A stretch of 64,000 nt of DNA. Origin: a virus (taxonomy: Duplodnaviria > Caudoviricetes). Positions within the stretch are counted from its first letter, which is position 1; every line of letters starts with the position of its first letter. A program made the translations under genes and the position numbers. This document shows, piece after piece, positions 55,660 to 61,665 of the stretch. Below the pieces are notes generated by a model, which ran no database searches, was not told the DNA's origin, and was given only the letters and a program-made list of their open reading frames with translations. The stretch lies in IMG/VR virus record IMGVR_UViG_3300029305_005280; one strand, written 5' to 3'.

Positions 55660-55857
55660 TTGATAAAGATGGCAGAAATGAATTATATGTATGTCCTTAT
55701 TGATGGTGTGAATAAGATTCATTATGGTGCTTGGGATGATGAATTTAAAGCTCGTGAAAAAGCAAGAGAGTATGAAAGTCTAAATCATCTTCCCAAGGGT
55801 CAAATTGATATTTACGAGATACCTCATTGGGAATTTCATTTCAAAGAAAATATGTAA
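55660..55857 (+). CDS. Hypothetical protein
   Basis: RBS and own promoter. Confidence 0.5.
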   Translation: MIKMAEMNYMYVLIDGVNKIHYGAWDDEFKAREKAREYESLNHLPKGQIDIYEIPHWEFHFKENM

Positions 55858-55859
55858 TT

Positions 55860-55891
55860 TAGTTGGATATCAAACAAAGATATATTATAAT
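55860..55891 (+). promoter_or_regulatory. Sigma-A-type promoter driving the large ncRNA/tRNA region
   Basis: TAG-TTGGAT-N17-TATAAT with no ORF downstream. Confidence 0.7.
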
Positions 55892-55930
55892 AGTAAATGT
55901 AAAATAAATAATAAATTTGTTTTACAAATA

Positions 55931-56920
55931 GGTGCCACGAAGCCCGAATTAAGACACTATGGTTAGAGTTAAGAGCCCGCCGTAGCTTGTGTACAAGTGG
56001 GAATAAGAAGCAGCAGTGGTAAATGGAGTGTGATGAACAGCCTATACATAATCTGGTTGAGGGTGTGGAACCATTCAATGTAGTCTATTTTGAAGTGACA
56101 AGATTGATAAAAACCCTAAAAGGAAATTTCGGTTGAACTCCGATATATCTATGAGGATGCACTGTGGAATAGCAACAAAAATACTACATTACGCGTAAGC
56201 AAGTTAGTTGAGTTGTTCCTCATAGACTAACCGCCCGCAGGCCATTAACTAGTATAGGCCGTTCCAGTATTGGCGGATGATTAAGGACAGTAGGGACAAC
56301 TTCGCCTGCCGAGAGAATGAAGCTCGCTCAGGTAAAAGCCATAAGCCACCTGGTAACAGGTCCGTGGAACTAAAATGCTGAGAGATAAGTTGTCAGATAA
56401 TCAGTGGGAAAGATTATCAAACATTCCGTAGTGAGTATAAAGCCATATTCAAGTATGCTACAATGTACAAACTCAATGAAACAGTGAATAAACTGTATTT
56501 ACCACGCTTGACCGTGAGGTGAAATTCCCTGGCAGGTCTGACTAAATACGACATAAGTAACTGATTAGCCATCCGTACAATGGTTGAATTGAGATGTAGC
56601 AGAGTTTAGCACAACGATAGCTCAAGGGAAGAGCACCAGCCGTGAGGGCTGGGGGTTGGAGTCCGAATCTTCTGAGTGTGACCAAAAAGAAAAACTCTTA
56701 AAAATACAAGAGTATGAAGTAACAAGGTAACAATGATTAGCAAACGGTTAGTCGCCAAGAGTGGTAAGAAAAGACTGTTGGAAGTGGTTGCAAACATGAA
56801 CCCAACCCTTGTTCCCATAGGTGAAAGTCCTATGGCGGAGAATGCGTTTTATTGAATGGTGCAAGCATTGGAATCTGATGCTTTGGTAAGTGTTGAACGA
56901 GGTGAGAATCCTCGGCACCA
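55931..56920 (+). ncRNA. Large (~990 nt) structured ncRNA candidate, GOLLD/ROOL-like
   Basis: No credible ORF, GC-richer than its flanks, and has its own promoter. The 5' GGTGCC pairs with the 3' GGCACC-A. It contains several T-loop hairpins and an embedded tRNA-like element, and lies at the head of the tRNA array. Confidence 0.6.
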
Positions 56921-57006
56921 AATGGATTGATGATTAGACTAAATAACGATAACACTTGCATTTTCATAACTTTTATTGTATATAAAATAGTTCTTAGATT
57001 AAATAT

Positions 57007-57091
57007 GCGGGATTGGTGGAATTGGCAGACACAAGGGACTTAAAATCCCTCGGGTCAAACCGTACCGGTTCAAGTCCGGTATCCCGCACCA
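57007..57091 (+). tRNA. tRNA-Leu(UAA)
   Basis: Cloverleaf with long V arm, loop CTTAAAA and CCA end. Confidence 0.95.
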
Positions 57092-58058: not shown

Positions 58059-58158
58059 CACAGTATAGTTTAGTGGCAAAAAACAACCGAATCCCAGGTA
58101 ACAGACAATCCTCACAAGGGATTAAGATACTCAAGTTCGATTCTTGATGCTGTGTCCA
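58059..58158 (+). ncRNA. tRNA-like RNA with aberrant anticodon arm
   Basis: Acceptor CACAGTA/TGCTGTG-T-CCA, D-like arm and perfect T arm TCAAG-TTCGATT-CTTGA, but no canonical anticodon arm. Confidence 0.6.
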
Positions 58159-58334
58159 CACGCTATGGTTTTTAGATTCCTTGAGCGTTTTGAACTCCGT
58201 GCAGAACTGAGGACGCTTGGTTTAGAGCAAAACAACAAAGGGCGCTATGACTCTTGAAAGAATAGAGCAAGTCAAATTTGATAATAGTGGCGTTTATGCG
58301 AGTGGGCCGACTACACAGGGAAACTTCGCTACAT

Positions 58335-58889: not shown

Positions 58890-59529
58890 GTTGGAGAGAT
58901 GGTACTACCTTAACTTCACTCCGTAGGGTAACGCTTACAACAAAGATTAGTAAGGTACGCATTTTTGGTTTCAGGTAAGACTTTCTATGGTGTTAATAAA
59001 GAAAGGAAATTAAAGTTGCAGCTGGGTTGGTAAACCTCTTTAACGGGAGAAAGCTTCCTCATTGTAACCAAGTGTAGTTATTAGGTACGACATAAGGCCT
59101 TATGCCGGTATAACAGCACTTGTTTATATATAGAATATGCTTGTGAAAAATTTTGCGTATCATGTAAGGCTGTCCGTTGAGGTTGAGCATATTCATTGCA
59201 TATACTGGTGGGACGGCGCCCAACCCTTAAATGAGTGGCTCACGATATCGATGCCAGTATTCATGTTTTCTATATAACTTTATTTCATATGCATTCCCCT
59301 TTCAATAATACATATAAGATAAAGTTTCGAAGTCCAAGCGGTGAAAGTCCGGCAAGACCTGAAAGAAGGAACTTGGCAAATTACTTTAAACATAAGGTGC
59401 TCCGATATAGCATATAGATACTAGTTCATATATATGCCAGCACTCCAAGTAGACAACTGAGTCGAAGTACGGATTTGATAGAGTCGAGCAGGAGCTAAGT
59501 GGAATTTGAGAAACAGCCTTTATATACTT

Positions 59530-60969: not shown

Positions 60970-61190
60970 GAGGGAAGTTGACTTTTTGTATTTCAAACAC
61001 ACCTACTAATAGTGGTAGTAAATACTATAATATATTGTCCTGGCAGACAAAAACCAGTGAAATAAAGAATTGCTGCGGGGTATAAGTGCGTGGTAGTGAC
61101 CGTCGCCTCAACAATGCTTAAGGATATCGTCAAATGCCGATTATTGGGATATAGTAACGAATAAATCTGGGAATAGTTACATAGATTTAT

Positions 61191-61347: not shown

Positions 61348-61665
61348 CTAGACGGATTGAGGTCTTGCATAGGTTAGAAAGTAAAAAGGTACGACACTTT
61401 TCCTATAAACCAGTGACTCACACTGTAGAGACTACTAAGAGCTGTGAGGAAAGTCCGATGTGCTCACAGACGCTCAGACAGTAGGCAGCGACGAATAGGC
61501 CTAGTGAAGATGATAACTTTGATAATCAAATAAAAATCCGGTCCAAAGTAAGCATAATATACTAAGTGGCATACATGAGATATTGGTTGGGCAGTGCTTC
61601 GCCTATTTAATCAAAAGCTAGTGTATGTACCCCCAGTTTTCCGGATGGGTCTGGGTAGTTTATCT

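Follow-up and report, generated by a model that had tools for sequence, protein, structure and literature searches.

What kind of element fills the kilobase that lies in front of the tRNA genes of this phage, and does it form one molecule? The stretch in question covers positions 55931-56920 of the window, by which we mean the whole 64,000 nucleotides analysed. A sequence-only reading had described it as a giant RNA of about 1 kb, GOLLD-like or new, that is free of open reading frames and closed by a tRNA-like end. The descriptive part of that account is borne out. No credible ORF is present, as the longest ones touching the stretch encode 80 aa and 70 aa, both on the minus strand, and no anchor-defined frame stays open on either strand throughout the 24 members of the RNA family described below. 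The G+C content is raised (0.42-0.44 versus 0.28-0.39 across the 4 kb upstream). The dedicated promoter is there as well: a sigma-70-type sequence, TGGATA-16-TATAAT, lies on the plus strand at 55864-55891, reaches 10 of 12 in a consensus scan, and is kept almost base for base in a relative, L084, where it also precedes the homologous RNA. A terminator scan found no intrinsic terminator after the stretch, which together with the conserved promoter suggests that the stretch is co-transcribed with the tRNA array. The minimum free energy (MFE) fold of the single sequence is modestly better than that of shuffled sequences (z = -2.85). The kilobase before the phage tRNA genes is a real folded non-coding RNA; its unity is a different matter, to which we return.

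The comparison with known RNA families supports the view that this is a new structured RNA. Among the families of Rfam 15, tRNA alone reaches its threshold in the whole window, and a search of 55700-57050 at E<=10 returned no GOLLD, ROOL, OLE, tmRNA, RNase P, group I/II intron, HEARO or Y RNA. The GOLLD model (RF02032, gathering score 150 bits) matches neither 55700-57050 at E<=10, nor the window at the gathering threshold, nor the phage genomes of five relatives at E<=1. The ROOL model (RF03087, gathering score 99.1 bits) matches neither the stretch nor the family members, and it works in this material, since true ROOL located elsewhere in the same phages scores 277-298 bits. The RNA is therefore distinct from ROOL and GOLLD. 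No tmRNA is called by ARAGORN, no Rfam tmRNA family matches the stretch, and the 5'-3' pairing is unsupported; the YrlA model (RF02553) likewise has no match in 55931-56920. BLAST searches against 50,697 deposited phage genomes, with the stretch, two typical members and the invariant motif as queries, gave nothing or tRNA-like bits only. We found no description of the family in the literature, though approximately 8,500 unnamed candidate RNAs from IMG/VR (PMC10690425) may list it without a name. The 417-nt core of the stretch is thus a member of an apparently undescribed family of structured phage RNAs.

The collection of homologues started from the flanking protein of 396 aa, which led to a relative phage (L082-L084) with 51% protein identity. 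In L084, 417 nt of RNA corresponding to window positions 56423-56839 are 84.9% identical, and the RNA region has another head and another tail there. Conservation is higher in the RNA than in the proteins, at 84.9% nucleotide against 51% amino acid identity. A motif scan of metagenomes added L091, which matches window positions 56009-56925 at 81%, as well as the shorter forms L088 and L092, the latter a minimal member of about 330 nt. Scans of viral contigs with the invariant motif brought the total to 24 distinct sequences, all from uncultivated phages and with lengths of 270-441 nt. Most members are about 330 nt long, and the member in the window measures 417 nt. Five phage records were searched for further copies, and each genome carries one. 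The upstream protein of 164 aa has relatives at 80 loci, and none of these loci carries the RNA. In contigs of bacterial genomes the scans returned a single chance match, L098, with both scans using motif variants specific to one subgroup; considering that members were collected by motif scans, the range of the family and its presence in bacterial genomes are under-sampled. L098 was discarded together with L089 and L114, all three being chance motif matches in coding DNA.

The fold of the core (56424-56840, plus strand) was derived from an alignment of the 24 distinct sequences, made with MAFFT and folded with RNAalifold, and the pairs were counted against shuffled alignments and against slid partners. 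RNAalifold predicts ten helices. Across 55 pairs, 96.6% of the alignment cells form standard pairs, compared with 77.9% in shuffles and approximately 42% with slid partners, and 40 of the 55 pairs have changed on both sides; none of 500 shuffles reaches any of these measures. The covariation asked for as a check of the sequence-only reading is thus very strong. One predicted helix, 'helix 2' (alignment columns 8-13 / 19-23), never varies and clashes with P2, and it was dropped. Because the frequent G-U pairs fit only the plus strand, which is the strand of the tRNAs, the RNA is assigned to that strand.

The ends of the core are paired by P1 (56424-56428 / 56836-56840), which occurs among the members as UUCCG/CGGAG, UUGAG/CUCAA, UCGAG/CUCGA, UUGUG/CACAA and GAUUG/CAAUC. 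It is followed by J1/2 (56429-56443), a 15-nt junction, UAGUGAGUAUAAAGC, which is identical in all 24 members, an invariance that comes partly from selection, as members were gathered by scans for this very motif. The 5' strand of P2 (56444-56456) pairs with 56704-56716; the helix is blurred in the alignment, yet nearly every one of the 24 members has the duplex, and its compensatory variants include CAUAC/GUAUG and CAUAAG/CUUAUG. The P3/P4 arm (56457-56600) consists of P3 (56457-56461 / 56596-56600), with three covarying pairs, and P4 (56472-56477 / 56588-56593), with six; it holds two GUACAA motifs (56462-56472 and 56573-56581) and a lineage-specific extra T-loop hairpin (56516-56529). P5 (56601-56607 / 56692-56698), which covaries and is present as AGAGUUU/AAACUCU, AGAGAUU/AAUCUCU, AGGGAUU/AGUCCCU and AGAAAUU/AAUUUCU, encloses a tRNA-shaped arm. 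The next arm (56721-56813) is built from P8 (56721-56727 / 56807-56813), in which six pairs covary, and P9 (56777-56781 / 56802-56806), in which five do. P10 (56815-56835) is the hairpin CCATAGG-TGAAAGT-CCTATGG, which had been picked out from the sequence for its T-loop-like loop UGAAAGU; it is the best-supported helix of the family, with six of seven pairs covarying and 99.4% of cells paired. The long-range helices P1, P2, P5 and P8 make the core a single domain and not a string of hairpins. In this architecture, P1 joins the two ends of the core, and the invariant 15-nt strand sits in a four-way junction of P1, P2, P8 and P10; P2 runs on to a three-way junction, from which the P3/P4 arm with its GUACAA motifs and the P5 arm with a complete cloverleaf extend.

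The tRNA-shaped arm (56608-56684, plus strand) is a non-decoding domain with a cloverleaf layout, in which the D and T stems covary. It has U8, a D stem (56620-56623 / 56631-56634) with GG in the D loop, a T stem-loop (56658-56672) whose loop is of the canonical UUCRANU type, and an acceptor stem followed by NCCA. The acceptor and anticodon stems were assigned by a script in 11 members, as RNAalifold had missed them on a poor MAFFT alignment of the arm only. In these 11 members position 1:72 is always an A/G mismatch (A1/G72), and A73-CCA follows, at 56681-56684 in the window. This CCA is internal to the core and would be exposed only after cleavage. The anticodon loop reads CGUGAGG in the window, without U33; across the family it is mostly 6 nt, in some members 8-9 nt, likewise without U33 and not conserved. 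ARAGORN calls a tRNA in five of the 24 members, with odd anticodons, one of which is UUA. The Rfam tRNA model (RF00005) scores 24.8-27.3 bits in relatives, below its cut-off of 29, and has no match to the arm of the window at E<=10. The non-conserved anticodon loop and the sub-threshold scores point to a tRNA-derived structural mimic and not to a decoder. One member, L101, has neither the arm nor the P3/P4 motifs, and mimicry can therefore account for the function only in part. The real tRNA-like element lies in mid-stretch and had not been listed by the sequence-only reading of this stretch; the tRNA-like terminus proposed there is not supported.

Outside the core, the stretch is made of three further parts on the plus strand. 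The 5' leader (55931-56042; GGUGCCACGAAGCC ... GGUAAAUGGAG..GAUGAACAGCC) is common to the window, L091, L093, L088 and L110, and in L088 and L110 it adjoins the core without an insert. Its 5' UGCCAC (55933-55938) is predicted to form a local helix with GUGGUA (56016-56021), where L110 has CUAC/GUAG for CCAC/GUGG in the window. The accessory insert (56043-56420) has no Rfam match and, among the relatives compared, is found only in the window, L091 and L093/L096; it is structured, its variable hairpins show some compensatory changes, and it includes the hairpin TCGG-TTGAACT-CCGA at 56129-56143, which had been seen correctly. The 3' tail (56857-56920), found only in the window and L091, is composed of a closing helix (56857-56862 / 56915-56920), a hairpin (56863-56883) and the T-arm-like hairpin CGAGG-TGAGAAT-CCTCG (56898-56914), also read correctly. 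The closing helix of the tail, UGGUGC/GCACCA, has two Watson-Crick compensatory changes in L091, where C-G replaces U-A and A-U replaces G-C; in the T-arm-like stem, A-U is likewise replaced by G-C. L084 has a different head and tail, and the homologue of its tail is found in the window at 61034-61181, 4 kb away. On this comparison, the stretch is a chain of leader, insert, core and tail, in which the flanking modules are lineage-specific accessories.

This modularity bears directly on the proposal that the stretch is one indivisible giant RNA of about 1 kb, with its 5' GGUGCC paired to the 3' GGCACC beside a T-arm and with a CCA-ended, tRNA-like terminus. GGTGCC (55931-55936) and GGCACC (56914-56919) are both present, the MFE fold of the stretch does pair positions 1-6 with the 3' end, three G-U wobbles would still let the 3' GGUGCU of L091 pair with GGUGCC, and 55931-56920 is conserved end to end in L091. 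Against it, each end pairs locally and does so with compensatory changes, in the tail of L091 and in the leader of L110; the two changes in the tail are explained only by the local helix and therefore disfavour a 5'-3' closing helix. The supposed CCA end (56918-56920) is part of the local tail stem and is not conserved, as L091 reads GGTGCT there. Leader, insert, core and tail are each closed on themselves and occur separately or elsewhere in relatives: the leader in relatives that lack the tail, the core of L084 between another head and tail. We consider a single indivisible molecule improbable. An RNA-only assembly like those of ROOL and GOLLD would be another way to account for a large RNA at this site; it might be a multimer, perhaps together with the ROOL that closes the array, and would display or enclose the tRNA-shaped arm. 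This reading, drawn by analogy, is consistent with the genomic niche, which is the same as that of ROOL and GOLLD, with the presence of ROOL in five of 15 phage records, with the linker tRNAs that GOLLD sometimes has (bioRxiv 10.1101/2024.12.08.627333), and with the finding of no protein partner near the family RNA. It is unlikely all the same, considering that the complete genomes G004, G005 and G011 have the family RNA and no ROOL, and that most members, at about 330 nt, are much smaller than ROOL or GOLLD.

Three other explanations assign the stretch to a different class of function. It might be the carrier or precursor of a special tRNA, from which RNase P would free the cloverleaf to act as a real tRNA, for example a suppressor; the ARAGORN calls, the UUA anticodon, and an arm that has the acceptor stem, U8, GG, T loop and A73-CCA argue for this, but the anticodon loops of irregular length without U33, the sub-threshold tRNA scores and the constant A/G mismatch at 1:72 make it hard to credit. 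Little more can be said for a cis-acting leader that, like a T-box or a processing enhancer, controls or stabilises the transcript of the tRNA operon, which we regard as very improbable. The window and several relatives do have the RNA at the head of the array, and T-loop motifs are known to bind the tRNA elbow, for instance in RNase P and T-box RNAs; a terminator and an expression platform are lacking, however, and many members are found in mid-array, 5-14 nt from tRNAs, or before protein genes. A protein-coding gene on the opposite strand is almost certainly not the answer. At 10 loci the core is overlapped by minus-strand ORFs of 70-153 aa, which group together in BLASTP, yet no anchor-defined frame is open across the family, the 3' half is open in four of 24 members and in differing frames, and the substitutions in the helices are compensatory. 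The absence of a conserved open frame refutes the antisense ORF.

The surroundings of the family are marked by tRNA genes. In the window the first gene of a 19-tRNA array, tRNA-Leu(UAA), lies on the plus strand at 57007-57091 according to ARAGORN and Rfam, and tRNA-Leu(UAA) is also the first tRNA after the RNA in L084. Same-strand tRNA genes occur in the fetched flank of 22 of the 24 members, the two exceptions having less than 1 kb of flank. Measured from P1, 11 of the 24 are within 5-14 nt of a tRNA on one or both sides, and other members have a promoter directly before P1. This spacing makes excision by tRNA-processing enzymes a reasonable expectation for the family, and such enzymes probably cut the family RNA out. 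The maturation proposed in the sequence-only reading is thus plausible for the family. Clustering of the neighbouring genes revealed no conserved protein partner; the neighbours are GIY-YIG homing endonucleases, a papain-like peptidase and proteins of unknown function. Several relatives have such a GIY-YIG gene about 1.1 kb before the RNA (L104:6898-7830, L111:5045-5947), which fits frequent shuffling of cassettes in these arrays.

Several observations were made on the arrays themselves. Four non-tRNA blocks of the window (58162-58291, 58895-59058, 61034-61181 and 61348-61661) reach 79-92% identity to relatives in which protein identity is about 51%; they have no Rfam match at E<=0.5 and are probably further small structured RNA modules. 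The tRNA model also matches 97 nt at 58059-58155 with 34.6 bits; ARAGORN makes no call there, and the match is possibly a tRNA with an insertion. Similarly, ARAGORN does not call the tRNA-Leu(UAA)-like gene that follows the RNA at L093:2881-3005 (the same in L096), whose anticodon region is enlarged by an insertion of about 60 nt. In L094 (8330-9100) the core is followed by a second promoter and about 750 nt of ORF-poor, G+C-richer sequence before the first tRNA, which may be another RNA module. Two relatives have sub-threshold matches to YrlA, of 39-40 bits and with E about 1e-5, immediately before the leader (L088:2237-2338, L093:1755-1874).

The phage of the window also has a true ROOL (L129:2170-2813, 284 bits), at approximately window positions 64351-64994, about 350 nt past the window end, on a contig that extends beyond the window. 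Five more tRNAs flank it, and most of the tRNA array lies between the family RNA and ROOL. The same phage also occurs in JGI samples 3300018493, 3300018494, 3300018495, 3300024272 and 3300032167 and in several ENA assemblies (ERZ27248306 and neighbouring accessions). In this phage and in G001-G003, ROOL lies 7-10 kb downstream of the family RNA on the same strand, and G008 also has a ROOL, there on the minus strand. Of the seven records with a completeness of 87% or more, three contain ROOL; the family RNA thus often has ROOL in its tRNA island. In the phage of the window, a 549-aa ORF located downstream of ROOL (L129:4290-5939) has a faint match to TROVE (Ro60), the protein partner of Y RNAs, and the closest relative has a 561-aa ORF with a 26-bit TROVE match (G003:C1:35510-35734, L124). 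Among five relatives' genomes TROVE occurs in this one, and the four other carrier phages have none, so the gene is not a general companion of the family.

Comparison with described systems places the family close to known RNAs in its setting and apart from them in its structure. ROOL and GOLLD are RNAs of phages and prophages that occur near tRNA islands and have unknown function (PMC5737381; bioRxiv 10.1101/2024.12.08.627333), and long non-coding RNAs near the tRNAs of phage K have been compared to them (PMC9241854). The family RNA resembles ROOL in being a large structured phage RNA beside tRNA arrays in herbivore-gut and Firmicutes-type phages, and the two occur in the same genomes at opposite ends of the same array; ROOL, however, has another fold and about 580 nt, whereas most family members have about 330 nt, and the integral cloverleaf belongs to the family RNA. 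In GOLLD the 3' region is conserved, the 5' region varies and the linker sometimes holds a tRNA (bioRxiv 10.1101/2024.12.08.627333). The family resembles it in combining a conserved part, variable 5' parts, a tRNA-shaped element inside and a location in phage tRNA islands, and the description of the stretch as GOLLD-like is apt only as an analogy of layout, not as homology. The tRNA-shaped arm of the family is nearly universal, non-decoding and enclosed by a covarying helix, whereas that of GOLLD is an optional linker tRNA. YrlA and other Y RNAs (RF02553) also present a non-decoding tRNA-like module on another RNA scaffold; in the family RNA, by contrast, it is the acceptor end that opens onto the scaffold, while the anticodon arm is the closed one. 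The tRNA cluster of phage T4 contains species 1 and 2 (rnaC/rnaD), stable non-tRNA RNAs of 120-140 nt that are freed by tRNA-processing enzymes; they are likewise non-tRNA RNAs inside a phage tRNA operon and, by their description, are set apart from the family in size and sequence.

We favour the reading that the stretch is a modular structured RNA heading the phage tRNA operon, with a core that is probably a stand-alone RNA of about 420 nt from an uncatalogued family. Its transcription would begin at the 55864-55891 promoter and run into, or together with, the tRNA operon; the enzymes that process the tRNAs next to it, namely RNase P and those of 3' trimming, would also define its ends. What the core does can be proposed more tentatively. 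It could be a stable scaffold that presents the tRNA-shaped arm, with its acceptor, elbow and CCA, to a factor of the host or the phage that recognises tRNA by shape, and thereby serve as a tRNA mimic or decoy in support of the phage tRNA supply, a step argued from shape alone and less likely than not to hold. A wider and more speculative possibility, to which we give rather little weight, is that the family represents a third class of large phage tRNA-island RNA beside ROOL and GOLLD, a tRNA decoy or handling platform that might act with ROOL and the Ro60/Y-RNA genes in shielding phage translation from host factors that attack tRNAs.

Large and intricately folded RNAs are rare in bacteria and phages, and each of them has opened new biology or structural chemistry, as ribozymes and the OLE, ROOL and GOLLD assemblies illustrate. 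The minimal form of about 330 nt, with its strong covariation, its fixed 15-nt junction and a cloverleaf set in a three-way junction, offers a ready target for probing, cryo-EM and assays with RNase P and CCA enzymes. With ROOL and, in this phage, a Ro60-like gene as neighbours, these phages seem to carry whole islands of tRNA-related structured RNAs, and such islands bear on the question of what ROOL and GOLLD do.
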